Shown: positions 6,514-32,000, counted from the first letter of the stretch. The stretch is DNA of 32,000 nucleotides from Geobacter sulfurreducens PCA (GCF_000007985.2 NC_002939.5:630001-662000), one strand, 5' to 3'. Numbers and translations are program-made. The notes: generated by a model from the sequence alone, not told the origin.

Positions 6514-7400
6514 CCCTCGTCAGGTGAAGTCTCCACCACCTCAATTTCGATGTAGTCCGAGAGGTTGGGGTCGCTGGCGCGGCGCAGGGTGACCTCGGTG
6601 GAGACAAGTTTCTTGTTGACGTAGGAGTACCCCGACAACACGATGACCTGTGCCGATGTCTTGATGCCGAAAACCTCGGCGGGCGCCGGCATCCCCTCAG
6701 CATCCCCAGCCACGATCACGGTCCGGTGAATCTCTTTGAGCTTCCGGTCGAAGAATTGTTCCACCTCCCGCAGTTCTCCCTTTACCGCGTAGAGCACGTT
6801 ACGCCGCAGAGCCTCATTTTCGCGGATCTGAAACACGCGGGAGCCGGGAAAGCGGCCGGTCCGCGGCTCAGGGGCGGGAATGTCGACGGCGGGAATGATT
6901 CGCTGTTTTTTCCATGAGGTGGCAAAACCGGTACTCACGGGGATGTGAAGCTCGTAAACCGCCGCCGTAAGAGGAACAAGAGGTTTGTTGGTCTTGATGT
7001 CCCGGACCGTTCCGTCGGAGATTTCAATGGTATCCGGTTCGCCTTCCACCTTTCGCGTCATGGTGATTGCCGCGTCCAGGACGGTCCGATCCCATGCGAA
7101 GTCGCCATAGTAGGCGGCCCCGTAGATGCTGATCCCCCGGGAAATCAGGCTTTCATTAAGTTTGCGCACGTTTCTGCTGGTAATTCCCCGGTCTGAGGTG
7201 ATGGTCACGAGCCGGCGATCTCCCTCTGTGGTAACCGTAATATCCCGGTACTGGAACGAGGGGGAGAAGAGGGGGGCGAGCGTCCGTTCGGCCGGAGAGG
7301 CTTCGTGTGCCTCCACCGTCAGGTAATCCTGCGGGGCCGCCGAAACCATTGCCTGCACGGGTGCTGCGAGTAACAACGCGGTACCTGCCGTTGCTGCCAT
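6483..7400 (-). CDS. secreted hypothetical protein
   Basis: Long minus-strand ORF. The internal ATG at 7400 gives a classic signal peptide MAATAGTALLLAAPVQA/MVSA, whereas the longer ORF start at 7496 adds a non-signal leader. I recognise no family. Its 3' end overlaps the convergent peptidase gene by 31 nt. Confidence 0.6.
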   Translation of the reverse strand: MAATAGTALLLAAPVQAMVSAAPQDYLTVEAHEASPAERTLAPLFSPSFQYRDITVTTEGDRRLVTITSDRGITSRNVRKLNESLISRGISIYGAAYYGDFAWDRTVLDAAITMTRKVEGEPDTIEISDGTVRDIKTNKPLVPLTAAVYELHIPVSTGFATSWKKQRIIPAVDIPAPEPRTGRFPGSRVFQIRENEALRRNVLYAVKGELREVEQFFDRKLKEIHRTVIVAGDAEGMPAPAEVFGIKTSAQVIVLSGYSYVNKKLVSTEVTLRRASDPNLSDYIEIEVVETSPDEGYSQTAGSWR

Positions 7401-7660
7401 GGCCTGTCTCGCGAAGTGAATGCATCTGTCCAAACGCACGGGGATCTCCTTTCGAGCTGGTTCGCTTCCGTCAATGACACGCATGAAGAGATTCATCCCG
7501 CCAGGAAGGAAGACGAACGGTCTGTTTCTGATACTGCCGGAGGATGGGGTGGGTTGCGGATAGTTAGGAATGTCTAATTATACATATCCGCTACTCGATT
7601 TCCAGCAAAATGTTTGGCGGGGTGGGGCATCGGCTTTGCTGCGTTCGGGCCGGAAAGCGC

Positions 7661-7694
7661 AAATGGGGCTGCGGCGTGTGCCGCAGCCCCATTT
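7661..7694 (-). terminator. hairpin downstream of tRNA-Thr (probable terminator)
   Basis: GGGGCTGCGG-cgtgtg-CCGCAGCCCC, a 10-bp perfect stem flanked by AAAT/ATTT, 9 nt after the tRNA 3' end on the minus strand. The U-tract is weak. Confidence 0.5.
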
Positions 7695-7702
7695 GTATAT
7701 GC

Positions 7703-7778
7703 TGGAGCCACCGATCCGACTTGAACGGACGACCTGCTGATTACGAATCAGCTGCTCTACCGACTGAGCTACGGTGGC
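7703..7778 (-). tRNA. tRNA-Thr (anticodon CGU)
   Basis: The minus strand reads GCCACCGTAGCTCAGTCGGTAGAGCAGCTGATTCGTAATCAGCAGGTCGTCCGTTCAAGTCGGATCGGTGGCTCCA. Acceptor stem GCCACCG/CGGTGGC, anticodon stem CTGAT/ATCAG with loop TTCGTAA, T-loop TTCAAGT, encoded CCA, 76 nt. Confidence 0.95.
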
Positions 7779-7879
7779 CTGTGCTGCAAACTGCATTGTG
7801 TCCCTGATCAGGCGGCTGCATTTCATCGGAAGCCGGCGGCCTGCCATGGAATGCATCGTCTGCAATGAAGAGACACCAG

Positions 7880-7908
7880 TATTTAACCTAACTGGCGGAT
7901 GGTGTCAA
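7880..7908 (-). promoter_or_regulatory. candidate sigma-70 promoter upstream of tRNA-Thr
   Basis: The minus strand reads TTGACA-N17-TAAATA (plus-strand tgtcaa 7903-7908, tattta 7880-7885). This would give a leader of about 95 nt before the tRNA. Confidence 0.45.
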
Positions 7909-7924
7909 TAAGTAATCCCGGTCG

Positions 7925-9235
7925 CTAGAGGGTTGCCGTCCGCTGCTTTTCCATGGCGTCGTCCATCACCTTGTAAGCACAGAACTCGCCACACATGGTG
8001 CAGGCGCCGTGCTCGGCCACGCCCGATTCGTCGCGCATGCGCCGGGCTTTTTCCGGGTCGAGGGCCTGTTCGAATTGACCTTCCCAGTCCAGCTTCTTAC
8101 GGCATTTAGCCATGGCGATGTCCTTAGCCATGGCCCCCTTTACCCCTTTGGCTATATCGGCGGCATGGGCGGCGATGCGGGAGGCGATGACCCCTTCGCG
8201 GACGTCTTCCACGCTCGGCAGTCGCAGGTGCTCGCTCGGTGTCACGTAGCAGAGGAAGTCGGCCCCGGCCGCCGCGGCGATGGCGCCGCCGATCGCGCAG
8301 GTGATGTGGTCGTAGCCGGGAGCGATATCGGTTACCAGCGGGCCGAGGACATAAAAGGGAGCGCCGTGGCAGAGTCGCTTCTGGAGGAGAATGTTCGCTT
8401 CGATCTGGTTGAGCGGCACGTGCCCGGGGCCTTCGATCATGACCTGAACCCCGACGTCCTGAGCCCGCTGGGTCAGCTCGCCCAGAAGGATCAGCTCGTG
8501 GATCTGGGCCCGGTCAGTGGCATCCGCGAGGCAGCCGGGGCGGAAGCCGTCCCCCAGCGACAGGGTCATGTCATATGCCTTGACGATGTCGAGCAGCCGG
8601 TCAAAGTGCTCGAAGAGAGGGTTTTCGGCGTTGTTGTAGGTCATCCACTCCACGGTGAAGGCGCCGCCGCGGGAAACCACGTCCATGATGCGCCCCTCGT
8701 TCTTCATGCGCTCGACCGTGGCGCGGGTCACGCCGCAGTGGACGGTTATGAAGTCGACTCCGTCCTCGGCATGCTTGATGATCCCCTCGAAGATATCGTC
8801 CACGGTCATGTCGACGATGGCCTTTTTCTTGGTCCTGACCGCATCAAGGGCCGCCTGGTAGAGGGGGACGCTGCCGATGCAGGCATTCGTCTCGGCGATG
8901 ATCGCGCGGCGGATTTCGTCCACCGGTCCGCCGGTGGAGAGATCCATGATGGCGTCGGCACCGTGGCGAACCGCCACCCGGGCCTTCTCAAGCTCCTTGG
9001 TGATATCCGTGTCGTCGGCGGAGGTGCCGATGTTTGCGTTGACCTTGGTCCGTAGCCCTGTGCCCACGGCCAGGGGGCGGCCGTTGTGATGCTTGTTGTT
9101 GTGGCAGATGATGATGGTCCCGTCGGCAATGCCCGCCTTGATGAATTCGGGCGATACCCCTTCGGCCAGGGCGGCCTCTTTCATCTTGTCGGTGATGATT
9201 CCGTTGCGGGCGTATTCCAGTTGCGTCATAGCCAT
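7925..9235 (-). CDS. thiC: phosphomethylpyrimidine synthase ThiC
   Basis: 436 aa starting [22 protein letters not shown] with AAGGAG 8 nt upstream. Conserved ThiC blocks ([25 protein letters not shown], and the C-terminal CTMCGEFCA cluster motif). The upstream 138 codons of the track ORF are a non-coding extension. Confidence 0.95.
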
Positions 9236-9284
9236 GTGTCGATACTCCTTGGTCGTTATCCGGGTGATTTCTGCCGGTCCCCGA

Positions 9285-10757
9285 TCACCGGTCCCTGACG
9301 TCCTCCGCGGCGAGGATATGGTTGACCGGTCCGTGTCCGCGTCCCAAGGGCTGGGCAAGGCGGATGGCAGCGGTGATGTAACGTTTGGCCCGGGCGATGG
9401 CTTCGCGCAGGGGGTCGCCCTGGGCCAGATAGGTGGCAATGGCCGAGGCGAAGGTACAGCCGGTGCCGTGGGTGTTTTTCGAGAGGATTCGCGGTGAGAC
9501 GAAGCGGTGGAAGGCTGCCCCGTCGAAGAGGATGTCCACCGAGTCGCCGGCCAGCAGGTGGCCGCCCTTGAGAAGAACGTTGCGTGCCCCCAGCCGGTGC
9601 AGGCGGCGGGCCGCCTCCCGCATCGATTCTTCGTCGGAGATGTTTGCACCGGTGAGCCGCTCGGCCTCGGGTATATTGGGGGTAACGAGGTAGGCGAGGG
9701 GAAAGAGCCGCTCCTTGAGCACGCTTACCGCTCCGCGGTCGATCAGGTTCGCCCCCCCCTTGGCCACCATAACGGGATCGACCACTACCATTCGCCGCCG
9801 GTACTCGGTAAGCTTCGCGGCGATTGCGACGATGGTTTCCGCCGAGAAGAGCATGCCGGTCTTGACCACATCCACGGGAATGTCGGAGAAGACCGCGTCG
9901 AGCTGGTCGGCAACGAACGCCGGCGGTACGCCGTGGATGCCGCTGACCCCCCGGGTGTTCTGGGCTGTCAGGGCCGTGAGGACCGACGAGCCATAGCTCC
10001 CGAGCAGGGTGACGGTTTTCAGGTCTGCCTGGATGCCCGCGCCTCCCCCCGAATCGCTGCCGGCCACGGTGAGGACGGAGCCGCGCGGAAACGGTGCGCG
10101 CCGGTTGAAGAGCAGTGCTATCTCGGTGGCCGCCAGGGCCGGATCGGGATGGGACAGAACCGCCGATATGACTGCCACGGCATCGGCACCGGCATCAATG
10201 ACGCTGGCGCCGTTATCGCGGGTAATGCCGCCGATGGCGACAATGGGGATGCTGATGGAACTCCGGATGGCCGCGAGCAGCTCCGATCCGGCCACATGCT
10301 CGACCTCCTTACTCCGGGAGGGGAACATGGCGCCGAGGCCGATGTAGTCCACCCCGGCCGCCTGGGCCTCCAAGGCTTCGCTCAGGGTGTGGGTGGACAC
10401 GCCGATGATCTTGCCGGGGCCGAGAACGCGTCGCGCTTCGCGGGGATCGCCGTCACCCTGGCCCAGGTGAAGCCCGTCGGCCTTGAGGCTCACGGCCATC
10501 TCCAGGTCGTCGTTCACGATGAAGGGGATGCTCCGCCTGCGGCACAGCTCCCGCAGCTCCAGGCCGAGGGCGAGCCGGCTCTCCCGGTCCTGATTCTTGT
10601 TGCGGTACTGGACCACTCGGGCGCCGCCGTCGATGGCCGCCTCAACCCGCGGGATGAGGTTGTCGTCGTGATCGGTCACCAGGTAGAGCCCCCGGATGAC
10701 CGAGTCGTGCTTGTCCCGGTTTATGACGAGCCGAAGCGTGTGACCGTTAGAGGCCAT
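9285..10757 (-). CDS. thiED: bifunctional thiamine-phosphate synthase / hydroxymethylpyrimidine-phosphate kinase (ThiE-ThiD fusion)
   Basis: 490 aa from [12 protein letters not shown] (GAGGAG RBS). The N-terminal half is ThiE-like ([28 protein letters not shown]). The C-terminal half is ThiD-like ([37 protein letters not shown]). Only 49 nt separate it from thiC. Confidence 0.9.
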
Positions 10758-10773
10758 GAAAGGAAATCTCCTC

Positions 10774-10920
10774 AAAAAAAAACCGCGACGGCAAAGTCGC
10801 GGTTCCAGAAAAGACGTACGGATGATTGTTTCTGGCCGCTTCCCTACGCCGGTATAAACCGGATCAGGTTCAAAGGGTTCGGGCGTTGCCCGTCTCAGTT
10901 CCCAAGAACTCCCCCAGCAG
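10774..10920 (-). promoter_or_regulatory. TPP (THI-box) riboswitch with intrinsic-terminator expression platform
   Basis: The minus strand reads CTGCTGGGGGAGTTCTTGGGAACTGAGACGGGCAACGCCCGAACCCTTTGAACCTGATCCGGTTTATACCGGCGTAGGGAAG, carrying the conserved CUGAGA and ACCUGAUCCGG..UAUACCGGCG.AGGGA elements. It is followed by CCGCGAC-tttgcc-GTCGCGG-T10 (10774-10803) directly before the thiED RBS. Confidence 0.9.
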
Positions 10921-10935
10921 ACTATGGTGTAAACA

Positions 10936-10964
10936 AAGCTAAACGATAATCCCCCACAAGTCAA
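10936..10964 (-). promoter_or_regulatory. candidate sigma-70 promoter for the riboswitch-thiED-thiC transcript
   Basis: The minus strand reads TTGACT-N17-TAGCTT, placing a TSS about 10 nt before the riboswitch P1. Confidence 0.4.
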
Positions 10965-11047
10965 CGGAATTAACATGGATTTGCCGGGCGGGAAGGCGCA
11001 GGTTTTCATCCTTTACAGGCGGGGTGAGAAGTGGTACCTAAAGGGGC

Positions 11048-12196
11048 ATGGACAGCCGGCCCACCATTGCTGAAGTCGATCTCGCCGCCCTCCGCCACAA
11101 CTACGACCTTGTCGTCCGTACGATTCCCCGGGGGTGCGGAATCCTGGCGGTAGTCAAGGCCGACGCCTACGGCCACGGTTTCATGGATATCGCCCGCGAG
11201 TTGGAGACACTGGGAGTGACTGCCTTCGGCGTTGCCTTTCTGGCCGAGGGAATTCAACTGCGCAAGAGCGGAATCGATCGTCCCGTCCTGATCCTGGGAG
11301 GGGTTTATCCCGGCCAGGAACGCAAGTGTGTCGGGTTCAATCTGTCCACGGCCCTGTTCAGCCTGGAGCAGGCGCGGGTTCTGGACGATGCGGCCGGTCG
11401 CCTGTATCGCCGGGCCAGGGTCCATGCGAAGATCGATACCGGCATGGGGCGCCTCGGCATCCCCCACGAGGAGGCGTCGGCCTTTTTTAGCGCCCTGCGG
11501 GAGTTGAAGCACCTGGACCTGGAGGGGATCATCTCCCACTTCGCCTCCGCCGACGAACTCGACGAGGATGGCCGGCGCTACTCCGATCTCCAGGCGAGCC
11601 GGTTTGCCGCGGCGGTCGCGGCGGCCCGCCACGAGGGGTTCGAGCCTCGCTATGTCCATATCGCCAACAGCGCGGCCGCCTTCGGGATGGACCTGCCGTT
11701 CTGCAACCTCGTCCGGCCCGGCATCGTCCTCTACGGCGCGCTCCCTTCCGGCGACTTCGAGGGGAAGATGGCGCTCAAGCCCATCATGCGCCTGCGCAGT
11801 TCCATCGCCATGCTCAAATGGGTGGAACCGGGCACAAGCATCAGCTACGCCCGCCGCTTCACCGCTCCCGACCGGCGACTCGTGGCCAGTATTCCGGTTG
11901 GCTACGCAGACGGCTACAGCCGTTCTCTCACCAACCGTGGGGAGGTTGTCGTGCGCGGCCGGCGCGCTCCGGTCGTGGGCACCGTCTGCATGGACTGGAT
12001 CATGGCCGACGTGACCCACGTCTCCGGCGTGACCGTTGGCGACGAGGTGACGCTTCTGGGGTGCGACCAGGAGGGAAACTGCGTCCGTGCCGAAGAACTT
12101 GCCGAGTGGGCCGGTACCATCCCCTACGAAATTTTCTGCGGCATCAGCAAGCGGGTGCCGCGCGTCTACCTCAACCCGTCGATCAGGCACAGGTGA
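11048..12196 (+). CDS. alr: alanine racemase
   Basis: 382 aa with the PLP-lysine motif [11 protein letters not shown], plus SHFASAD, YGALPSG and VGYADGY blocks typical of Alr. Confidence 0.92.
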
Positions 12197-12212
12197 GAGA
12201 AGGGAAACTCCG

Positions 12213-13250
12213 ATGACCGAAGGCATCAAGCTGACATCGCTCGTCAAAGCAGCCGGCTGAGCGGCCAAGCTGGGCCCGGCGGGCCTGGAACAAGCGCTGA
12301 GCGACATGGTTCGGGAAGACGATCCGAATCTGCTGGTGGGGCCGGAAACCGCCGACGACGCGGGGGTGTACCGGATAGGGGAGGGGCTCGCCCTGGTGGA
12401 GACGGTGGACATCATCACCCCACTGGTGGATGATCCCTACACCTTCGGCCGGATCGCGGCGGCCAATGCCCTGTCGGATGTCTTCGCCATGGGCGGCCGG
12501 CCGGTCACGGCCATGAACCTCGTCTTCTTCCCGGCGTGCGCGCTACCGGGGTCGGTCCTTTCCGCCATTCTGGCCGGCGGGCACGACGCCCTGCGCGAGG
12601 CGGGGGCCTGTCTCGTGGGCGGCCATACGGTGGAGGACGACGAGCTCAAGTACGGCCTGGCCGTGACCGGACTCATCAGTCCGTCGCGCGTGGTGCGCAA
12701 TGCCACTGCACGTGCCGGGGACCGGCTGGTGCTCACCAAGCCGCTCGGCACCGGCATCGTCTCGACGGCAATCAAGGCCGACATGGCACCGGCTGCGCTC
12801 ACGGCCGAAGCCGTCCGCTGGATGACCATGCTGAACGCCGAAGCCGCGGGGCTCATGCTCGAGTGCGGGGCCTCCGCCTGTACCGACGTGACCGGTTTCG
12901 GCCTGGTCGGACACGCCTGCGAGGTGGCTCGGGGGGCAGGAGTGACCCTGCGTCTTCACCTGGAACAGGTGCCGGTGCTGGACGGCGTCATGGGCCTGGT
13001 GGCCGACGGGCTCGTGCCGGCCGGCTGCTATCGCAACAGGGATCACTATGCACCCTTTGTCGGCGCGCCCCGCAGCGACGACGACCGGCTTCTTCCCCTC
13101 TTCGATCCCCAGACATCGGGGGGGCTCCTCCTGTCCTTGTCTCCGTCCTCCGCCGGCCGGTTCCTCGCTGCGGCCGGCGACCGGGGGCTGTTTGCCCTGG
13201 AGGTGGGGGAGGTCCTCCCCGCCGGGGAGTGCGCCGTTGACATCGTCTGA
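12213..13250 (+). CDS. selD: selenide, water dikinase SelD, selenocysteine-containing (in-frame TGA at 12258-12260)
   Basis: ATG 12213 reads [34 protein letters not shown] and is in frame with the track ORF 12306-13250. The TGA sits at the position of the catalytic Cys/Sec in the SelD N-terminal G-(C/U)-x-x-K motif. Downstream AIR-synthase-like blocks are DDAGVY, DVFAMGG and [13 protein letters not shown]. Confidence 0.9.
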
Positions 13251-14517
13251 CTCCAACGTTGATCCAGGCCTCGGCATTGCCGTTGACCTGGGCACCACTA
13301 CCCTTGCCGCTTCGCTGGTCGATCTTTCATCCGGGGAAAGACTGGCTTCCGCCGGGTCTCTGAACCCCCAGCGGGAATTCGGCGCCGACGTGGTCTCGCG
13401 GCTCGATGCCGCCTGTCGTTCCGGTGAGGCACTGCAACGCATGGCCGCGCTGGTCAGGGAGGAGTTGTACCGCCTCGCGGCCCGTCTGCTCGACAGCGCC
13501 GGCGAGGCACGGGACCGCCTGCGCATGGTGGCTGTGGCCGGCAATCCCGCCATGGAACACCTCCTGCTCGGACTACCCGTTGTCCGGCTGGCATACCCCC
13601 CCTACCGCCCGCTGTTCTCGACCTCCACGCATATTTCCGCGGCAGACCTGGGGTGGGACCTGTCCGGCCGGGTCGCGCTCTTCCCGCTGCCGGGCGGCTT
13701 TGTGGGCGGCGATACGGTAGCCTTCTTGTTCGGTGTTCCCGATGTGTGTGCCCCGTGCCCTGGTCCCCGTCTGTTTCTGGACATGGGAACCAATGGCGAG
13801 ATGGTTCTCCAGTGCGGTGATGTGCTGCTGGGCACATCGGCCGCCGCCGGTCCCGCCTTCGAGGGGGGAGGGCTCGCCTGCGGCATGGCTGCCCTGCCGG
13901 GGGCCGTGAACGGCATCATCCGGGATGGAGACCGCGTGCGCGTCACGACGATCGGAGGCGGCCAGCCCCTCGGTATCTGCGGTTCTGCGGTGCTGGACAC
14001 GGTTGCGCTTCTTCTGGAAGAGGGGCTTCTGGACTCCACCGGCCGCCTTCTGCCGCCGGAAGAGATCGCGTCACCTGTCGGCGCCCGCATGGGAACGGTG
14101 GGCGGGGAGCCCGCGTTCATTCTTCATCGGGATGCGGCGCGGACCATCTATCTCTCCCAGGGGGATATCCGCCAGGTGCAGCTCGCCAAGGGGGCAATCC
14201 GCGCCGGCATGGAGGTCCTGTGCGAACGGGCCCGCATCCGGTGTGAGGATATTGAAGAGGTTGTCCTGACCGGCTCTTTCGGCGCGGTTCTCTCACCCCG
14301 GAGCCTAAAATTCATTGGAATTTTCACGGAAAAGATGGTACAAACGACCCGTTTCGTCCGGGAGGGTGCCTTGGCCGGTGCCGAAAGGGCACTGACCGCC
14401 CCGGAGGGGTTCGAGGCCGTTGACCGACTGGCCCGGGCGCTCCGGGTCATCCCCCTCTCGGGTACGCCTGCCTTCGAGAAACACTTTCTGAAGCACATCG
14501 ACTTCCCGTCTCGCTAA
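13237..14517 (+). CDS. ASKHA-fold ATPase, DUF4445 / RACo C-terminal-like, without the N-terminal ferredoxin domain
   Basis: The phosphate-1 motif [15 protein letters not shown] starts at about 13273, so the start must lie upstream of it. The only canonical start after selD's body is TTG 13237, which overlaps the selD stop by 14 nt. Later motifs are [19 protein letters not shown] and VLTGSFG. Confidence 0.7.
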
Positions 14518-14569
14518 CATCCGCCACGGAGCTCCGTGGTGATCTCAGCTCATGTCAAAGGGGTAAACC

Positions 14570-16135
14570 ATGGCAAAGATAACACGTGCGCTCATCAGCG
14601 TCTCGGACAAGACCGGCATCCTTGATTTCGCCCGGGAACTGGCCGGCTACGGCGTGGAGATCCTCTCCACCGGCGGTACCGCAAAGCTTCTCCGCGACGC
14701 GGGACTCGCGGTCAAGGACGTCTCCGATTTTACCGGCTTTCCGGAGATGCTCGACGGCCGGGTCAAGACGCTTCACCCCAAGGTCCACGGGGGCCTTCTG
14801 GGAATGCGCTCCAACCCAGACCATGTGGCAACCATGAAGGCGCACGGCATCGAGCCCATCGACTTGGTGGTGGTGAACCTCTACCCCTTCGAGGCCACCG
14901 TGGCCAAGCCCGAATGCACCCTGGAAGATGCCATCGAGAACATCGATATCGGCGGTCCCACCATGCTCCGCTCCGCGGCCAAGAACAACGCCGACGTGAC
15001 CGTGCTCGTGGATCCGGCGGACTATCGGCCGGTTCTCGATGAAATGAAGGCATCCGGCGGCGCCGTGTCCCGGGAGACCAACTTTTGCCTGGCGGTGAAA
15101 GTCTACCAGCACACTGCAGCCTATGACGGCGCCATTTCCAACTGGCTCGGCGCCCGGACCGGCGAAGGGATCGCCGCCTATCCCGACACCGTCACGCTTC
15201 AGTTCAGAAAGGCCCAGGAGATGCGCTACGGCGAGAACCCCCACCAGGGTGCCGCCTTCTATGTGGAGCGCCAGGTGAAGGAAGCGTCCGTCGCCACGGC
15301 CCGCCAGCTCCAGGGCAAGGAGCTTTCCTACAACAACATCGCCGACACCGACGCGGCCCTGGAGTGCGTGAAGCAGTTTGCCGAAGGCCCCGCCTGCGTC
15401 ATCGTAAAGCATGCCAACCCCTGCGGCGTGGCCGTGGGCGGGACGTTGCTGGAGGCCTACGACCGGGCCTATGCCACCGATCCCGAGTCGGCCTTCGGGG
15501 GCATCATCGCCTTCAACCGGGAACTGGACGCCGACACGGCGCGGGCAATCTGCGACCGCCAGTTCGTGGAGGTCATCATCGCTCCCGCCGTATCGCCGGA
15601 GGCCACGGAAGTTGTTGCCGCCAAGAAGAACGTGCGTCTCCTGGAGTGCGGCACCTGGCCGGAGAAGCAACAGCCGCGCCTCGACCTGAAGCGGGTGAAC
15701 GGCGGCATCCTGGTGCAGGACACCGATCTCGACCTGTACGCCGAACTGAAGGTCGTGACCAAGCGGCAGCCCACGGAGCAGGAGATGAAGGACCTGCTCT
15801 TTGCCTGGCGCGTGGCCAAGTTCGTCAAGTCCAACGCCATTGTCTACGGCAAGGGCAATATGACCATCGGCGTGGGGGCCGGCCAGATGAGCCGGGTCAA
15901 CTCGGCCCGCATCGCCGCCATCAAGGCCGAGCACGCGGGGCTTGAGGTGAAGGGGGCCGTTATGGCGTCCGATGCCTTCTTCCCCTTCCGCGACGGCATC
16001 GACAACGCGGCTGCCGTGGGCATCACCGCGGTTATCCAGCCGGGCGGCAGCATGCGCGACGCTGAGGTGATCGCCGCCGCCGACGAGCACGGCATGGCGA
16101 TGGTATTCACCGGCATGAGGCATTTCAGACACTGA
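14570..16135 (+). CDS. purH: bifunctional AICAR formyltransferase / IMP cyclohydrolase
   Basis: 521 aa with [39 protein letters not shown] and a C-terminal RHFRH, all canonical PurH. Confidence 0.97.
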
Positions 16136-24653: not shown

Positions 24654-25352
24654 ATGAGAAGCGAAGTAAAAATCGGATTGGCCCTGACCGCACTTCTGGT
24701 GGCCGTTACCGCGGCGGGAGCCGCCAGCATCAAGAATACCAAGCACGACCTGAGCTCCGGAAGCACCGGCGCCACATTCAAGGCGACGAACACCGACCAG
24801 ATCTGCGTGTTCTGTCACACCCCGCACAACGCGCAACAGGACATTCCCCTGTGGAACCGCGGCAACCCCACGGCCAGCACCTTCACCCTCTACTCGTCCA
24901 GCAGCATGAATAACGTGCCGGTCAAGCAGGGCTTTACGGCCGACTCCATCTCGCTCTTCTGCATGAGCTGTCATGACGGGGCCACCGGCCTGGGGGGCGC
25001 GGTGCACAACGACCCCAATGGTGCGGCAATCGCCATGGTGGGGGGGAACGATTTGATCACCGGTGAAGCCAACCTGGGCACCGATCTGAGCAATGATCAC
25101 CCCGTTAACTTCGAGGTAACCCCAGCCGGAATTGCCGCCGACGGCAACCTGGGCGCCCTCGATACCGGCACCAACCCGCCGACCATGAAGACCGGGGACG
25201 TGACCAACGGCCTCCCCCTCTTCAAGTCAGCCCGCGGAGCCACGACCCTCGAGTGCGGCAGCTGCCACAAGGTCCACGACAACACCGACGCTCCGTTCCT
25301 CCGTACCACCATGGCGGGCAGCAAGCTCTGTCTGGGTTGCCACAAGAAGTAG
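24654..25352 (+). CDS. omcE: tetraheme outer-surface cytochrome OmcE (nanowire subunit)
   Basis: AAAGGAGAA RBS and ATG 24654, 232 aa, signal MRSEVKIGLALTALLVAVTAAGAA. Four CXXCH motifs (CVFCH, CMSCH, CGSCH, CLGCH). Size, heme count and position a few genes after ppcA match G. sulfurreducens OmcE as I remember it. Confidence 0.85.
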   Translation: MRSEVKIGLALTALLVAVTAAGAASIKNTKHDLSSGSTGATFKATNTDQICVFCHTPHNAQQDIPLWNRGNPTASTFTLYSSSSMNNVPVKQGFTADSISLFCMSCHDGATGLGGAVHNDPNGAAIAMVGGNDLITGEANLGTDLSNDHPVNFEVTPAGIAADGNLGALDTGTNPPTMKTGDVTNGLPLFKSARGATTLECGSCHKVHDNTDAPFLRTTMAGSKLCLGCHKK

Positions 25353-25506: not shown

Positions 25507-27774
25507 GTGGGTTCCATGACGCTAGGACGCATGCACATAGGGCTGGCGTCAGTGTCGGTCTTGGCCGGCCTGGTTCTTTGCTCGCCCGCATCGGTGCGGG
25601 CCGGTATTTCCGGCGAGGCGGAGCTGGGATACGTGCGCTATGAGGCCGATGCCAACGGCGCGCGGGTCAGCGATGCCCATTCGTTCTATCAGCGCTACTC
25701 CTTGCTGTATGAGACATCCGGCGAGCTTTACAAGGGCAGGGTAGGGCGCTACGACCTTGCCCTGGGCTACGAGTGGGGCTCCTTTGATACTAAGATAAAG
25801 AATCCCTCCAATCCCACCGACCCCCAGACCAACTACAACCCCTCCGTCAGTGCCGGACATCTGCTGTATCGCGGCGAAGTGGTGCTCGATCCGCTGGAGC
25901 TCCCCCTGCGGCTCAGAGCCTACAGCTATGACACGAACCGGATCAACATGCACGAGGACCTGTCCGGCATTGACGGTTCGTCGATCTTTGCGCCGAGGCT
26001 GATCACCAACCTTTACGACGGCATGCATATCAACAGTGGCGCAACTCTCGTCTTCGGGGTCAAGAACGGCCTGACCAACGGTTATAACGCCATTTTCCGG
26101 CATATCCCGCTGGTCATGCTCGACTACCGCGACGATGTCAACCGGGACCTGAAGAGTCTGGCTCCCGTGGATACGCGCATGCGCCGTCTGGCCTTCGTGA
26201 GTCTGAACAAGAGGGACAACTGGTTCCACTACCGGACCACCGATTTCAGGGATTACCTCAACACCGACCAGTCCTTCAAGGAAACCCAGATGCAGATCGG
26301 CACGGTCGATCACCTGCTGGCGCGGCGGTGGATCGATTTGACCAACTGGGTGAAGATCTCGGCCGACGGCCAGTTCACCAAACACGCGAGTTCAATGCCG
26401 GCCAACTCCTTCGAAGCTTACGAGCTTAACCTGTTCGCCGTGGCTTCCCGCAAGACCTGGGATGCTCGGACCTTTTCCAGTTTTTCCCGGCTGCTCGACG
26501 ATGAAGGGATTACCCTGGAGCGGACGGTGCCCTTCTATGCAAGCGGTGTCCTCGGGGCCGATGTAGACTGGAAGGCCAGCCTCTATTCCAATGAAAAGAA
26601 GATTCAGTCCCCCAGCGGCAGCGTGGTCAACAACTCCAACTACAGCGCTTCGGTCCGCGCCGACATGTTCCGGCGCTCTCCCTTCACTCTGGGGGTGGTG
26701 GTGCGTGGGGAGAGCACCGAGAGTTACGGCTCGAAACTGCTTTCCTTCGAAGGAGGCGTCGAAACGGCAAGCACTGCGCGCCTTTCGCGCGACTACAGCC
26801 TGTCGGGGAGCTATACGGTCAAGTACTTCGATGCGACCGGCGGTACCGGTTCGGGCGACGGCTACCTCAACCAGAACGTCCTTGGTCGCGTGGCGTATGC
26901 GGCATCGCCCACCTGGCGTTTCGAGGTGGAGGAGGACCTGTCAGCGGCCAGCGGCACCAATCCGCGCAACTTCAACAATTCGGCTATCACCGTGAACAGC
27001 GGATTCAGCAGCGGCACGAGCACGGTATCGGGCTCTGCCATCTCGTTCCAGCGACGCAACAGCGAAATCGACGAATATGTCCGCTCCGTTACCACGGTCA
27101 GCGCGGCTTGGCGTCCCTTCTCCCGCACCTCGCTCAGCTTTTCGGTCAGCGAAGACGTCCTCATGCAGTCGGGAGCGCCGACCGACTTCCTGACCACCTT
27201 CCGCAGTACCATCGACTACAGTACGCCGACCTTTTTGGCCCGGATGCGCAACAGCTACAACGTGCGGATGGTCGGTGGCGAGAGCATCGACTATCTGGAA
27301 AGCGTGGGCATCCTGGAATACCGTCCCGTCCGGCAGTTGGAGGGACTTCTCACCTATACCTACAACGTGGGCGACGTGGACGTGAACACCAGGAGCGAGT
27401 TCCTGGACCTGCGGCAGCGGCTGGGTTACAGCTTCTACACCCTGAGCGGGGCGAACAGGAAACTGCTGGAACTCTACGAGGAGTTCACCTATAATCGCAC
27501 CCTGAACACGGGGACGGTGGCCAACGAGCTCAACACTACCAGGCGGTTTACCCTGGGGGTTCGGTATTTCCCGCTCCGCAGCCTGTTTGTTGGGGCGGAT
27601 GCGCGCTACTCGCTCATCGAGCCGGGAAGCATCACGGAGCAACTCTATACCGGCGTGGTGGGGCTCAATTTCCGGAAACTCCAGGCTAACCTGGAGTATA
27701 CCTACGGCAAGCGGGACGGCAGCGACAACCGGATCGAGAAGCGGATCGCCGCAAACGTGAAGAAGTTCTTCTGA
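25507..27774 (+). CDS. large outer-membrane beta-barrel protein (755 aa), family not recognised
   Basis: GGAG lies 6 nt before GTG 25507. Signal ...MHIGLASVSVLAGLVLCSPASVRA/GISGEAELGYVRYE. An alternating hydrophobic/polar, aromatic-rich strand pattern runs throughout with many Y/F-x-Y/F turns. The protein ends in ...ANVKKFF (terminal Phe beta-signal). Confidence 0.8.
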   Translation: MGSMTLGRMHIGLASVSVLAGLVLCSPASVRAGISGEAELGYVRYEADANGARVSDAHSFYQRYSLLYETSGELYKGRVGRYDLALGYEWGSFDTKIKNPSNPTDPQTNYNPSVSAGHLLYRGEVVLDPLELPLRLRAYSYDTNRINMHEDLSGIDGSSIFAPRLITNLYDGMHINSGATLVFGVKNGLTNGYNAIFRHIPLVMLDYRDDVNRDLKSLAPVDTRMRRLAFVSLNKRDNWFHYRTTDFRDYLNTDQSFKETQMQIGTVDHLLARRWIDLTNWVKISADGQFTKHASSMPANSFEAYELNLFAVASRKTWDARTFSSFSRLLDDEGITLERTVPFYASGVLGADVDWKASLYSNEKKIQSPSGSVVNNSNYSASVRADMFRRSPFTLGVVVRGESTESYGSKLLSFEGGVETASTARLSRDYSLSGSYTVKYFDATGGTGSGDGYLNQNVLGRVAYAASPTWRFEVEEDLSAASGTNPRNFNNSAITVNSGFSSGTSTVSGSAISFQRRNSEIDEYVRSVTTVSAAWRPFSRTSLSFSVSEDVLMQSGAPTDFLTTFRSTIDYSTPTFLARMRNSYNVRMVGGESIDYLESVGILEYRPVRQLEGLLTYTYNVGDVDVNTRSEFLDLRQRLGYSFYTLSGANRKLLELYEEFTYNRTLNTGTVANELNTTRRFTLGVRYFPLRSLFVGADARYSLIEPGSITEQLYTGVVGLNFRKLQANLEYTYGKRDGSDNRIEKRIAANVKKFF

Positions 27775-27815
27775 CAACGGGTTCCGTCGCCCCTCCTGGA
27801 TACCAACTGTAAAAA

Positions 27816-27842
27816 AACCGGGCCGGACCCGGTTTTTCTTTT
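27816..27842 (+). terminator. rho-independent terminator after the beta-barrel gene, abutting the next start codon
   Basis: A7-AACCGGG-ccgga-CCCGGTT-TTTCTTTT. The hairpin ends 6 nt before ATG 27849. Confidence 0.7.
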
Positions 27843-27848
27843 GTCGCC

Positions 27849-28850
27849 ATGGCCGATTCGATTACCTTTTCCATCATCATTCCCGTGAAGCCGGGCGGAA
27901 CCGTCCGTGCCCTCGATCGCCTCGGATCGGCCGAGTATCCCTCCTCGCACATGGAGGTCCTGGTGGCCGAGGGGACGCGGCCGAGCCGTCAGCGTAACCA
28001 GGCTGCAGCCGCTGCAGCGGGCGAGATACTCTATTTTCTGGATGACGACTCTCTGACGTCACCGGATTTTCTGGCGCGGGCTGCGGCACACCTGGCCGAT
28101 CCATCCATAGCCGCCGTGGGCGGCCCGTCGCTCACCCCTGCATCCGACAGCCGATTCCAGCGCGCCATCGGCGTCGTTCTGGCATCGCGGCTGGGTGGGG
28201 GCGGGGCGCGCAACCGCTACCGCGCCACCGGCAGCCCCCGCCGCACGAGCGAGCGGGAACTGATCCTGTGCAACCTGGCCATGCGCCGGGATGTCTTCCT
28301 GGCGGAGGGGGGGCTTGACGAGCGGCTCTACCCCAACGAGGAGAACGAACTCATGGACCGGATCTCGAAGCGGGGAATGAGCCTCGTACACGATCCGGAC
28401 CTGGCTGTCCGGCGGAGCCAGCGACCCACGTTCCGGGCGTTTGTCCGTCAGTTTTTCGGCTATGGAAGGGGCCGCGGCGAGCAGACCCGCATAGCCGGTG
28501 TGCGCTCAGTGGTGGATTTCCTGCCAACGGTGTTTCTGATCTACCTGCTTCTCCTGCCGGTCGCGCCCTGGGCTCCCTGTTTCCTGCCTGCTGCCCTCTA
28601 CGGTGCGGCGGTTATGGTGTCGGCCCTGTCGGGTGCCGTGCATTCGCGCCTCTATGCCGCATTACCGTGGCTCGTTGTGCTCTATCCGACACTCCACCTC
28701 TGTTATGGGGCCGGCCTCTTGAAAGGCCTGCTGGCACCCCGCTTCAGGTCCGGTGGCGGGGAAACCGCGCCGGTCACGATCCGTTGCGTCAAGGAGTTCG
28801 GCACTCCTTGGCATCTGCCTGCCCACGGTCCCAGGGAGGTCCCGCGATGA
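27849..28850 (+). CDS. family 2 glycosyltransferase with C-terminal membrane domain
   Basis: ITFSIIIPVKPGG, PSRQRNQAA and a DxD-type LDDDS form a GT-A N-domain. Three to four hydrophobic helices lie in residues about 225-300. Confidence 0.8.
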   Translation: MADSITFSIIIPVKPGGTVRALDRLGSAEYPSSHMEVLVAEGTRPSRQRNQAAAAAAGEILYFLDDDSLTSPDFLARAAAHLADPSIAAVGGPSLTPASDSRFQRAIGVVLASRLGGGGARNRYRATGSPRRTSERELILCNLAMRRDVFLAEGGLDERLYPNEENELMDRISKRGMSLVHDPDLAVRRSQRPTFRAFVRQFFGYGRGRGEQTRIAGVRSVVDFLPTVFLIYLLLLPVAPWAPCFLPAALYGAAVMVSALSGAVHSRLYAALPWLVVLYPTLHLCYGAGLLKGLLAPRFRSGGGETAPVTIRCVKEFGTPWHLPAHGPREVPR

Positions 28851-30346
28851 CGGCATCGCCGCTGCCGCACAAGCGCATCCTGCTCGTCTTTTTTCTTCTG
28901 GTGACCGTGACGGTCTACGGGAACACCTTTTTCAACCAGTGGACCTATGACGATATCCCCGTTGTCCTGAAGAATCCCGATGCCCACTCGCTTGCCGGTT
29001 TTGCCCGGAACACGATGCCCGGCCGCCCCATACGCGAGCTCACCTACATCCCCGACCATCTCCTGTTCGGCGACCAGCCCGCCGGCTATCGCATCCAGCA
29101 GCTGGCCTGGCACGGAGTGAACGGACTGTTGCTGGTCGCCCTTTTCCACGCCCTGGGGGTAGAGCTTCCCTTTGCCCTCATGGGGGCGCTCCTCTTCCTG
29201 GTGCATCCCCTCCAGTCCGAGTCGGTGGCCGGCATCGCGCACCGCAAGGAGTTGCTGGCCCTGTTCTTTGCCCTCGGTGCCGTGCTCTGTTTCGTGGGGA
29301 GTTTCGCCGCCGCCGGGGGGCGGCGCCTTGCCTTGTGGCTCGCTGCTCTTGCCGCGTACGGTGGCGCACTCCTTGCCAATGAGGCCACGGTGACGCTGCC
29401 GCTCGTGGCTCTCCTCTACGAATGGCTGATGGTTGAACCAAGAAAAAGGGTGCTGCTCAGGCGTCCCCTCGTGACACTTCTCTTCCTCGTGGCGGCCGGT
29501 GCGGCGCTCATGTACCGGTTCCGGGGGCTCCTGGCACCTGAACATCTGCTCACGGTCTATTCCAAGAACAGCTTTGGTGCTTCGGAGAACTATCTTCCCC
29601 TCTTCATGGGTGCCATGAAGGCCTTCGGATTCTATCTCTCCAAGATCGTTCTCCCGGTCCGCCTAGCCCCCGAGTATGTATTCCGACTCTCCGAAAGCCT
29701 CTGGCAACCGTGGGCGTTGCTGTCGCTCGGGCTCCTTGCGTCAGTGGCAAGCGCGACGGTCTTTCTCCGTCGCCGGCTTCCCCTGGTATCGTTCGGTATC
29801 GGCTGGTTCCTCATTTTCTGGCTGCCGGTTTCCAACCTGGTTCCCGTGGCCTACCTGGCGGCGGACCGGTACATGTACCTCTGCCTTCCCGGCGTTGGGC
29901 TCGTCCTGGCGGGGTGCCTCCAACGCTGGCCCCACCGGAGATTTGTCGGCGCCTCCTGCCTCGTGATTGTTGTGTTCGCCGGGCTCACCGTGATACAAAA
30001 CGGGTACTGGCGCAGCGAACATACCCTCTGGCGGCATGCAGTCACGGTCAATCCCGACTCTACCTGGGTGCGCGAGACGGTGGGGCTGAGTTACCTGCTG
30101 ACGGGGGATTACAACCAGGCGGCGGCGCATGCGCGGGAGGCGCTACGGATCGACCGGTTCAATATCCGGGCGTACCTGACCCTGGCCAAGGCCGAGGAAC
30201 GGCGCGGCAATCTGGCCGAGGCGGTGCTCAATTACGAGATGTTCGCCATGTTCGGCGCCATGGAGTACCCGGACGAAGCCGCCGAGGTCAGGCTCTATCT
30301 GCCTGTCCTGCGGCAGCGTCAGGCAGTGCAGAAGCAACATCAGTGA
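28847..30346 (+). CDS. GT-C fold membrane glycosyltransferase of the TMTC/DUF1736 (PMT-like) type with C-terminal TPR repeats
   Basis: An ATGA start/stop overlap couples it to the preceding GT2. 499 aa. The first-loop acidic motif is FFNQWTYDDIPVVLKNPD, and HGVNGLLLV and VHPLQSESVAGIAHRKELLALFFAL resemble TMTC signature blocks. About 10 TM helices are followed by TPR-like helices (WRHAVTVNPDSTWV...YNQAAAHAREALRIDRFNIRAYLTLAKAEERRGNLAEA). Confidence 0.75.
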   Translation: MTASPLPHKRILLVFFLLVTVTVYGNTFFNQWTYDDIPVVLKNPDAHSLAGFARNTMPGRPIRELTYIPDHLLFGDQPAGYRIQQLAWHGVNGLLLVALFHALGVELPFALMGALLFLVHPLQSESVAGIAHRKELLALFFALGAVLCFVGSFAAAGGRRLALWLAALAAYGGALLANEATVTLPLVALLYEWLMVEPRKRVLLRRPLVTLLFLVAAGAALMYRFRGLLAPEHLLTVYSKNSFGASENYLPLFMGAMKAFGFYLSKIVLPVRLAPEYVFRLSESLWQPWALLSLGLLASVASATVFLRRRLPLVSFGIGWFLIFWLPVSNLVPVAYLAADRYMYLCLPGVGLVLAGCLQRWPHRRFVGASCLVIVVFAGLTVIQNGYWRSEHTLWRHAVTVNPDSTWVRETVGLSYLLTGDYNQAAAHAREALRIDRFNIRAYLTLAKAEERRGNLAEAVLNYEMFAMFGAMEYPDEAAEVRLYLPVLRQRQAVQKQHQ

Positions 30347-30354
30347 GGTGCCCG

Positions 30355-31305
30355 GTGGAACTGAGTATCGTTGTTCCGATCTACAATGAGGAAGAGACTA
30401 TTCCGCATCTTCATGCGCGGGTGAGCGACGCCCTGGTCGGGTCAGGCATCGACTACGAGCTGATTCTCGTGGATGACGGCTCCTCTGACGGCTCGTTCGC
30501 CCTGCTGCGGGAGATTGCCCAACAAGACCGGCGGGTGAAGGTGATCCGCTTCCGCCGCAACTTCGGCCAGACCGCCGCCATGGCGGCCGGCTTCGATGCC
30601 GCCCGGGGAAGGGTCATCGTGCCCATGGACGGCGACCTCCAGAACGACCCGGCTGACATTCCGATGCTCCTGGCCACGATCGACGAGGGGTACGACGTGG
30701 TCTCGGGCTGGCGCAAGGACCGGCAGGACACCTTCGTCAACCGGCGCCTTCCCTCCATTATCGCAAATGCGCTCATCTCCCGGATGACAGGGGTTCACCT
30801 CCACGATTACGGCTGCACCCTGAAGGCCTACCGGCGCGAAGTGCTGGACGGGGTCAATCTGTACGGAGAGATGCACCGGTTCGTCCCCGCCCTGGCCTCC
30901 CAGGTGGGGGCGCGGGTGACGGAGATACCGGTCCGCCACCATGCCCGCCTCTATGGCACGAGCAAATACGGCATTTCCCGTACCATGCGCGTCGTTCTGG
31001 ACCTGATGACGGTGAAGTTCCTGCTCACCTATTCCACCAAGCCGATCCAGCTCTTCGGCAAGTGGGGCATCTATACCATCCTGGCCGGGTTCCTGACCGG
31101 CGGGCTTACCCTCTCTATGAAACTCTTCGAGGGGATGAGCATGAACCGCAATCCCCTGCTGATCCTGACCGCCTTTCTCCTCTTCGGAGGGGTGCAGTTC
31201 ATCGCCCTCGGGCTGCTGGGAGAGGTGAACGCCCGAACCTACCACGAGTCCCAGGGGAAACCGATTTACGTCGTCCGGGAGAAAATCAACCTGGATGAAA
31301 GGTAG
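30355..31305 (+). CDS. polyprenyl-phosphate hexosyltransferase (GtrB/Dpm1/ArnC-like GT2 with two C-terminal TM helices)
   Basis: GAGGT lies 5 nt before GTG 30355 (alternative start GTG 30343, overlapping the upstream stop). Motifs LSIVVPIYNEEE, ELILVDDGSSDGS, NFGQTAAMAAGF, MDGDLQNDP, SGWRKDRQD and GEMHRFVP. Two TM helices occur at WGIYTILAGFLTGGL and LLILTAFLLFGGVQFIALGLLGE. Confidence 0.85.
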   Translation: MELSIVVPIYNEEETIPHLHARVSDALVGSGIDYELILVDDGSSDGSFALLREIAQQDRRVKVIRFRRNFGQTAAMAAGFDAARGRVIVPMDGDLQNDPADIPMLLATIDEGYDVVSGWRKDRQDTFVNRRLPSIIANALISRMTGVHLHDYGCTLKAYRREVLDGVNLYGEMHRFVPALASQVGARVTEIPVRHHARLYGTSKYGISRTMRVVLDLMTVKFLLTYSTKPIQLFGKWGIYTILAGFLTGGLTLSMKLFEGMSMNRNPLLILTAFLLFGGVQFIALGLLGEVNARTYHESQGKPIYVVREKINLDER

Positions 31306-31317
31306 GGGGGCGGCGCC

Positions 31318-32000
31318 GTGAGGATTCTCATGCTGGCCCCCACGCCGTTTTTCGCCGACCGCGGGTGCCACGTCAGGATTTACGAAGAGGCCCGGACGCT
31401 CATTGCCCGCGGGCACCAGGTGCGGATAGTCACCTACCATCTGGGGCGGGACATGGCGGGCATCCCCACGGACCGCACCCTGCGCGTCCCCTGGTACACG
31501 AAGCTTTCCGCCGGACCCTCCTGGCACAAGCCCTACCTGGATGTTCTCCTCTGCGGCACCGCCCTGCGCACCGCCCGGCGCCTGCGCCCCGACCTGATTC
31601 ATGCCCATCTGCATGAAGGGGCGTTCTTCGGCGTGTTCCTGAAAAAACTGATGGGTATCCCCCTTCTGTTCGACTGTCAGGGGAGCCTCACCATGGAGCT
31701 GGCCGACCACGGGTTTGTCCGCGAAGGGTCGCTGCTCTACCGTTTTTTCGCCCTAATGGAGGGGGGAATCAACCGCAGCGCCGATGCCATCGTGACCAGT
31801 TCGGGGCCGGGCAGGGACGATCTCGTCACGAAATGGGGGGTGCCGGCTGTAAAGGTGACGGCCCTCATGGACGGGGTCGATACCGCGGTGTTCCGTCCCC
31901 ATGACCGCACGGAGGTTCGCCGCCGGCTCGGCATCGCGCCGGACGTGCCGCTGGCGGTCTATCTAGGAGTGCTGAACCGCTACCAGGGGATCGATCTTCT
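31318..32000 (+). CDS. family 4 (GT-B) glycosyltransferase, N-terminal part; the 3' end lies outside the window
   Basis: Absent from the ORF track because there is no stop in the window. I translated it by eye from GTG 31318: (M)RILMLAPTPFFADRGCHVRIYEEARTLIARGHQVRIVTYH...DLIHAHLHEG...MDGVDTAVFRP. The frame stays open to nt 32000 and is typical of a GT4 N-domain. Confidence 0.75.
   Translation, partial: MRILMLAPTPFFADRGCHVRIYEEARTLIARGHQVRIVTYHLGRDMAGIPTDRTLRVPWYTKLSAGPSWHKPYLDVLLCGTALRTARRLRPDLIHAHLHEGAFFGVFLKKLMGIPLLFDCQGSLTMELADHGFVREGSLLYRFFALMEGGINRSADAIVTSSGPGRDDLVTKWGVPAVKVTALMDGVDTAVFRPHDRTEVRRRLGIAPDVPLAVYLGVLNRYQGIDL

Follow-up and report, generated by a model that had tools for sequence, protein, structure and literature searches.

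The DNA considered here is a 32,000-nucleotide window of the Geobacter sulfurreducens PCA genome (GCF_000007985.2, NC_002939.5:630001-662000; positions count from its first letter), and our subject is a group of glycosyltransferase (GT) genes at 27849-31305, downstream of the nanowire gene omcE. To our knowledge, only three Geobacter nanowires have been defined structurally, and OmcE is among them. The sugars that coat it are believed to act as insulation and may govern bundling. One protein of the group, a 499-aa membrane protein that we refer to as the GT-C, belongs to a clade marked by an asparagine at position 178 (the Asn-type), and its sequence and neighbourhood make it a good candidate for the enzyme that glycosylates the OmcE wire. 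All window genes described below are on the same strand (+), in the order two multihaem cytochromes, an NHL propeller, omcE, a 755-aa gene, a hairpin, a first GT2 gene (GT2a), the GT-C gene, a second GT2 gene and a GT4 gene, and their boundaries agree with independent public gene calls. The product of omcE (24654-25352), a tetrahaem nanowire subunit and the candidate acceptor, matches the OmcE filament subunit (PDB 7TFS_A) with 100% identity across 232 residues, and the GT-C lies 3.5 kb downstream of the end of omcE; both the identity and the distance had been read correctly by an earlier model reading of the DNA alone (the sequence-only reading).

GT2a (27849-28850) encodes a GT2 of 333 aa that has a DDD motif and is hydrophobic in its C-terminal third, matching Pfam Glyco_trans_2_3 and Glycos_transf_2; no relative was found among solved structures. 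Its TGA and the ATG of the GT-C gene (28847-30346, stop codon at 30344-30346) overlap as ATGA, so that GT2a is translationally coupled to the GT-C. The second GT2 (30355-31305, 316 aa, GTG start) begins 8 nt after the GT-C stop, and the coordinates of both junctions are those that the sequence-only reading had described. The gene that follows encodes a GT4 of 383 aa in full, of which the window holds the 5' part (31330-32000; public gene calls, Pfam Glyco_transf_4/Glycos_transf_1). The 755-aa protein (25507-27774), which concerns us as context, is kept in omcE loci; Pfam and NCBIfam searches gave no family match for it, and it has been described as the large beta-barrel of the omcE cluster (bioRxiv 10.1101/2025.10.22.684050). 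For GSU0619-GSU0623, the literature yielded a single transcriptomics paper, which mentions GSU0619.

The second GT2 is of the GtrB/ArnC/Dpm1 type and is called GtrB below. ArnC aligns with its residues 3-311 (E 2e-64), and GtrB (sll0501) of Synechocystis with residues 1-310 (E 1e-44), in both cases including the two C-terminal transmembrane (TM) helices; the catalytic domain aligns with archaeal dolichol-phosphate-mannose synthase (DPMS), and the motifs DDG and DGD are present. Because the alignment to ArnC and GtrB is full-length, the protein is assigned by homology as a polyprenyl-phosphate monosaccharide synthase, the architecture that had been proposed for it from the DNA. Its score against the NCBIfam ArnC model (NF007986) is 245 bits, below the equivalog cut-off of 529, so the sugar is not assignable; against PgfS it scores 190 bits (cut-off 500). 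GtrB is the most conserved gene of the region, with orthologues 73-91% identical across Geobacteraceae.

For the GT-C, AlphaFold 2 gave confident models, with a mean predicted local distance difference test (pLDDT) score of 92.5 at full length and 88.8 for the TM part alone. Every probability-1.0 match of a Foldseek search with the TM-only model is a GT-C enzyme, with TM-scores of 0.45-0.48 to ArnT, 0.52 to Pmt4, 0.48-0.54 to STT3, 0.54 to PglB, 0.50 to AglB, 0.47 to DPY19 and 0.43 to EmbB. The predicted topology, derived from the model helices, hydropathy and the positive-inside rule, comprises 11 TM helices with a cytoplasmic N-terminus and with the YDD loop and a C-terminal domain of tetratricopeptide repeats (TPRs) in the periplasm. 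The loops rich in Arg/Lys (155-160, 196-206, 307-311, 361-365) all share one side of the membrane, opposite the TPRs (391-498), and the YDD loop follows TM1, the N-terminus of which carries positive charge. The TPR domain consists of six C-terminal helices, or ~3 repeats, an assignment backed by several Pfam TPR models, by PDB TPR structures (E 3e-17) and by the model itself. In the first periplasmic loop, D35-D36 of the YDD motif are kept without exception in 30 homologues, the most distant of them at 23% identity, and in 47 locus-derived sequences. The block F117-x-x-H120-P121...E125.V127...R133 varies little or not at all among homologues, and R133-K-E135, N178-E-A-T-V-T and D340-R-Y-M-Y are conserved as well. 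Conservation, model, Pfam and PDB searches here all support the earlier description of a polytopic protein with an extracytoplasmic YDD motif, a VHP block and C-terminal TPRs, and structure prediction, which had been suggested as a check, returned the GT-C fold with periplasmic TPRs.

With both the fold and the acidic motif of the first extracytoplasmic loop found, the protein is, as modelled, a member of the GT-C superfamily. Its place within that superfamily is another matter. In hmmscan against Pfam at E<=10 the GT-C matched TPR models, with weak matches to HemY_N and OapA_N, and gave no DUF1736, PMT, PMT_2 or ArnT-type match; NCBIfam searches of the protein returned TPR matches only, the full sequence found only TPR proteins among PDB sequences, and a profile of the TM domain found no match in the PDB at E<=10, including no solved PMT. 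PF08409 (DUF1736) is absent from the GT-C at E<=10 and from all of the 120 homologues listed; distant homologues alone (23-40% identity) carry PF13231 or PF02366. The label "TMTC/PMT-like", given in the sequence-only reading, therefore rests on architecture and motifs. JGI labels some orthologues protein O-mannosyl-transferase. A fold search with the full and TM-only models, aimed at separating ArnT from PMT or oligosaccharyltransferase, gave scores too alike to decide. ArnT has the best Foldseek E-value with both models, an outcome that the sequence-only reading had listed against itself; it is uninformative, since the TM-scores of PMT, STT3 and PglB are equal or higher and since TMTCs and TfpW also match ArnT first. 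ArnT is the closest solved relative of TMTCs too (PMC7801869).

Of the seven TMTC motifs M1-M7 (DD, SHKSYRP, RxD, KE(T/Q)xxT, DW, PxxP and ERxxY; Eisenhaber et al. 2021), the GT-C has DD, the RP of M2, R133-x-E135, E179..T183 and D340-R-x-x-Y344, with Asn178 in place of the Lys of M4; the DW motif, an exact PxxP and the DUF1736 loop were not recognised in this comparison. We call the protein a TPR-bearing GT-C whose predicted architecture is TMTC- and TfpW-like, and we do not place it in TMTC, PMT or ArnT.

Evidence on what the GT-C may act upon comes from its genomic neighbourhood. Close GT-C homologues were aligned, and scanning species-representative genomes with this alignment yielded 41 loci (numbered with L below), in which the window proteins were then searched for within a neighbourhood of +/-10 kb. 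omcE is at most 10 kb away in every one of the scan's loci that has enough flank and a GT-C at least 43% identical, and also in L017, where the identity is 36%; L048 and L129 fit the same linkage. The tally is omcE within 10 kb in 18 of 19 Asn-type loci with enough flank, in three gene orders. The first is that of the window, with the GT-C after the barrel gene and GT2a. The second is omcE-GT-C-NHL-barrel-GT2a, followed by GtrB in L010 and L016; the GT-C here comes directly after omcE (L003, L010, L016 and probably the short L008). In the third, purH and purD flank the GT-C, and the cytochrome-NHL-omcE genes lie 5-9 kb downstream of it (L014, 9959-11464; L017, 9965-11485). These last two loci are from Desulfuromonadales metagenome-assembled genomes (MAGs), in which the inserted GT-C is also upstream of purE-resB-ccsB. 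In L130 the GT-C adjoins resB, which in the window and other loci is found just upstream of the omcE cluster genes. Among the 19 omcE-linked loci whose flanks are long enough, 16 have GT2a after the barrel gene.

The omcE-linked GT-Cs have a common clade signature of Asn178, RKELL, LAPEY and ADRYMY, of which the first three are not found in paralogues. The Asn178 codon is at 29378-29380 in the window, and Asn is found in every omcE-linked orthologue (L001-L017, L048); Lys is kept at this position in all paralogues and distant homologues, including the extra TPR-GT-Cs further down the same clusters and the tandem arrays towards the tRNA(Val)-methyltransferase/ffh end of the region. In TMTCs, the Lys of KE(T/Q)xxT has been modelled as a ligand of the donor phosphate. 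An Asn at this site may, from the sequence, point to another donor or another way of binding the donor.

We also searched from the omcE side. Scanning metagenomes with an OmcE alignment yielded 80 omcE-like loci (34-51% identity), and only L048 carries GT2a, the GT-C and GtrB, in a set of which ~15 have roughly 8-10 kb of flank on both sides. With the GT block in one of 80 such loci, it reads as a clade-specific accessory of a much wider omcE family, in agreement with published omcE clusters that are minimal in marine and thermophilic genera and are followed by 15-70 glycosylation genes in Geobacter and Geomonas (bioRxiv 10.1101/2025.10.22.684050). In most of these metagenomic loci an NHL propeller gene is directly upstream, and many of their omcE-like open reading frames (L054, L061, L062, L070, L072, L084, L088 and others) are 540-600 aa long, made up of an OmcE-like part and a long extension.

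The authors of the OmcE structure described OmcE as extensively glycosylated (PMC9473688), which agrees with what the sequence-only reading had stated; its wording "unlike OmcS" was too strong, as OmcS is also reported to be glycosylated, with a different pattern (PMC9473688). The OmcE of D. soudanensis shows no glycan density, and that organism is without the glycosylation genes (bioRxiv 10.1101/2025.10.22.684050). The same preprint, though it names no genes and offers no experiments, already connects the GT2/GT4/GT39/TPR cluster beside omcE with glycosylation of OmcE, so the earlier statement that these enzymes had no assignment is outdated.

Several observations weigh against OmcE as the acceptor. 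A strong hairpin resembling an intrinsic terminator (27813-27837, + strand; a 10-pair stem followed by a T-run, TTTTTCTTTT), found by a terminator scan and also visible by eye, sits between the barrel gene and GT2a; because it separates the omcE-barrel unit from the GT genes, co-transcription of the latter with omcE is probably to be discounted. The omcE-linked loci all belong to Geobacteraceae or close relatives and are not independent, and this single-family origin means that shared ancestry inflates the count of 18 of 19; linkage that survives rearrangement is the stronger argument. The sole exception to that linkage is L128, where an Asn-type GT-C (10001-11500, 46% identity) has no omcE in its flanks and its neighbours (pyruvyl-transferase, PGA_cap, LPG_synthase_TM, DegT and GT4 genes) form a polysaccharide-type cluster. 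Ser plus Thr make up 21.4% of OmcE homologues in linked loci and ~19.5% in unlinked loci, a small difference that is confounded by length and phylogeny. Our literature search found no study tying GT genes to OmcE experimentally.

Two further points against it concern GtrB and the genes that follow it. Three loci (L125, L126 and, from Geobacter argillaceus, L127; ~7000-12800 in each) have none of the omcE cluster genes and keep GtrB, GT4 and a MarR-type regulator in unchanged order, 81-85% identical; these are preceded by a Lys-type TPR-GT-C of 607-621 aa, a short GT2 (237-245 aa) and a DUF2304 gene. Past the end of the window, the G. sulfurreducens genes look like a Wzx-dependent polysaccharide locus: they encode Gmd (GDP-mannose 4,6-dehydratase) and Fcl (GDP-L-fucose synthase), which both score above their NCBIfam cut-offs, three methyltransferases, a Wzx-like PF01943 protein, a rhamnosyltransferase-like GT2 and further GT2 and GT4 genes. 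In L044, a locus that covers this downstream stretch, Gmd and Fcl come after a MarR_EPS-like regulator (12168-14789). From Gmd, Fcl and the methyltransferase genes, the glycan of the locus is predicted to hold fucose or a derivative of it and methylated sugars, and these downstream sugar genes vary between genomes. Since GtrB-GT4-MarR and variable sugar genes are also found without omcE, the GtrB, GT4, MarR-type regulator and fucose/methyltransferase/Wzx genes appear to be a glycan locus general to Geobacteraceae and a source of donors or glycans, and GtrB probably serves whichever GT-C is present and is not dedicated to OmcE. Of the gene pair for which the sequence-only reading had suggested a test of co-occurrence with omcE, the GT-C clade is almost exclusively omcE-linked, and GtrB, like the GT4 beside it, is not omcE-specific. 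Judged by gene content, omcE is tracked only by the Asn-type GT-C and its coupled GT2a.

The short GT2 and DUF2304 gene of the omcE-free loci resemble the PpgS/Rv3632 type of polyprenyl-P-sugar synthase pair. We considered GT2a as a fusion of these two proteins and ruled it out, as there is no similarity (best blastp E=1.4).

The main rival reading is that the module decorates a polysaccharide: in the periplasm, the GT-C would attach a side-branch sugar to a glycan of the exopolysaccharide or lipopolysaccharide type made by the downstream Wzx-dependent genes, as in GtrABC and three-component pentofuranose systems, and the proximity of omcE would reflect a shared genomic hot spot and no common function. 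The downstream genes, from Gmd, Fcl, the Wzx-like protein and the three methyltransferases to the rhamnosyltransferase-like GT2 and the MarR_EPS-like regulator, fit this well, and they vary between genomes as O-antigen loci do. The GtrB-GT4-MarR block without omcE and the Asn-type GT-C among pyruvyl-transferase, PGA_cap and GT4 genes in L128 fit it also, and the region from purHDE/resB/ccsB to tRNA(Val)-modification/ffh is a conserved insertion site (bioRxiv 10.1101/2025.10.22.684050). Against it, this GT-C clade stays with omcE through three rearrangements, including a place between omcE and the next cluster gene, and in the omcE-free loci it is a different, Lys-type TPR-GT-C that stands before the block. 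The TPR domain suggests a protein partner, and OmcE carries glycans of unassigned origin. We regard decoration of a polysaccharide as fairly unlikely.

Less probable still is protein O-glycosylation with a main acceptor other than OmcE, such as the NHL propeller lipoproteins, the 755-aa barrel or the two multihaem cytochromes, or a general system for many periplasmic or surface proteins. The conserved cluster does encode several exported proteins besides OmcE, OmcS, which is encoded elsewhere, is also reported to be glycosylated (PMC9473688), and streptococcal pairs of a GtrB-type enzyme and a GT-C modify many proteins (PMC12041528). Yet among the cluster products glycan density has been reported for OmcE only, and in three loci the GT-C is directly 3' of omcE, mirroring pilA-tfpW, where the adjacent filament subunit is the substrate.

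That the two enzymes are an ArnC/ArnT-type pair adding an aminoarabinose-like sugar to lipid A is highly improbable: ArnC is the best solved-structure and NCBIfam match of GtrB and ArnT has the best Foldseek E-value for the GT-C, but the ArnC score is far under its equivalog cut-off, the GT-C gave no match to PMT_2 or PMT in Pfam, has TPRs in the place of the periplasmic domain proper to ArnT, scores at least as well to PMT, STT3 and PglB as to ArnT (which TMTCs and TfpW also match first) and is linked to omcE, and there is no arn pathway context, with no ArnA/ArnB/ArnD-type genes (aminotransferase, formyltransferase, deformylase) within 10 kb downstream.

We return to glycosylation of OmcE by the Asn-type GT-C. 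In the mechanism that we propose, GtrB, for which homology is strong, would charge undecaprenyl phosphate with one sugar, taken from a nucleotide sugar, on the cytoplasmic side of the membrane, and the lipid-linked sugar would then be flipped across it. The 11-TM GT-C would transfer the sugar to a periplasmic acceptor via its D35-D36 site, a chemistry suggested by its fold and motifs, and its short TPR domain would hold the acceptor protein or a partner. Gene linkage and the published glycan density point to OmcE as the presumptive acceptor, either at Ser/Thr of the unpolymerised subunit or on a glycan that OmcE already carries. We are confident of the outline, and the GT genes at 27849-31305 very probably form a lipid-carrier-dependent periplasmic glycosylation module. 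For the fuller statement, that the Asn-type GT-C uses the lipid-P-sugar made by GtrB in the periplasm to glycosylate OmcE or the glycans on it, with the TPR domain docking the protein, we consider the chances about even. A more tentative idea, to which we give somewhat less than an even chance, is that the Asn178-type short-TPR GT-C and its coupled GT2a are a dedicated nanowire-subunit glycosyltransferase that evolved in Geobacteraceae and coats OmcE in the periplasm before secretion, setting whether wires are single and insulated (G. sulfurreducens) or bundled (the unglycosylated D. soudanensis). If true, the two would be the cytochrome-filament counterpart of pilA-tfpW.

The enzyme types involved are already known and this is not a new kind of system; its closest precedents are pilA-tfpW, PMT with Ppm1, and GtrB with PgtC2. 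TfpW, the pilin arabinofuranosyltransferase of P. aeruginosa group IV pilin strains, was compared by its published description and resembles the GT-C in its cytoplasmic N-terminus, 11 TM helices, periplasmic DD(x), C-terminal periplasmic TPRs and closest template (ArnT). The tfpW gene is directly 3' of the gene for the filament subunit that TfpW glycosylates, as the GT-C is directly 3' of omcE in L003, L010 and L016, whereas in the window the GT-C is 3.5 kb from omcE and past a terminator. TfpW also differs in its length (646 aa), its longer TPR domain, its type IV pilin acceptor and its polyprenyl-P-D-arabinofuranose donor. The eukaryotic protein O-mannosyltransferases TMTC1-4 (GT105) likewise have 11 TM helices followed by lumenal TPRs, where those of the GT-C would be periplasmic (PMC7801869), and have in common with the GT-C the motifs DD and (S/G)RP in loop 1, LF.VHP..(T/S)E.V in TM3, RxD/E, xE..xT, and (E/D)RxxY in loop 5. 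Unlike them, the GT-C has no DUF1736 match, has Asn for the Lys of KE(T/Q)xxT, and has ~3 TPRs only in a total of 499 aa.

In the PMT (GT39) and Ppm1 system of actinobacteria, and with the fungal Pmt1/2/4, a GT2 makes the lipid-P-sugar and a GT-C moves the sugar to Ser/Thr of exported proteins. The fold is common to both (TM-score 0.52 to Pmt4), but the window GT-C lacks a PF02366 or PF13231 match and has TPRs where classical PMTs have a MIR domain. The combination of a GtrB-type undecaprenyl-phosphate-sugar synthase with an outer-face GT-C is also found in GtrB-PgtC2 and PgfS-PgfM1 (streptococcal protein glycosylation) and in GtrABC (O-antigen glucosylation); the streptococcal GT-Cs differ in being of the YfhO/PgfM type, without TPRs. 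The genes called in the 20-kb G. sulfurreducens locus include no GtrA-type flippase (PF04138-type).

What is new here is the gene-level resolution, the Asn-type clade, the three synteny arrangements and the generality of the GtrB block, and the whole is a plausible gene-level refinement of a published idea. It narrows a cluster of 15-70 genes to one or two that track omcE and supplies clear candidate catalytic residues (D35, D36 and N178), so that the role of nanowire glycosylation in conductivity measurements, bundling and biofilm behaviour becomes directly testable and engineerable.

Other relatives of the GT-C were seen in the scans. In L028, an Omnitrophota MAG, the gene of a distant homologue of 639 aa (9947-11866) is found 4.5 kb downstream of one whose product (4847-5446) bears the N-terminal methylation motif of type IV pilins, and just upstream of an alpha-2-macroglobulin gene, an arrangement with nothing decisive in it. 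Tandem arrays of two to four TPR-GT-C paralogues occur in L020 (5136-11365), L022, L023, L005 and L129, and those of L020, L022 and L023 adjoin a tRNA(Val)-methyltransferase-like gene, with ffh next in L020, which is the far end of the same conserved region.

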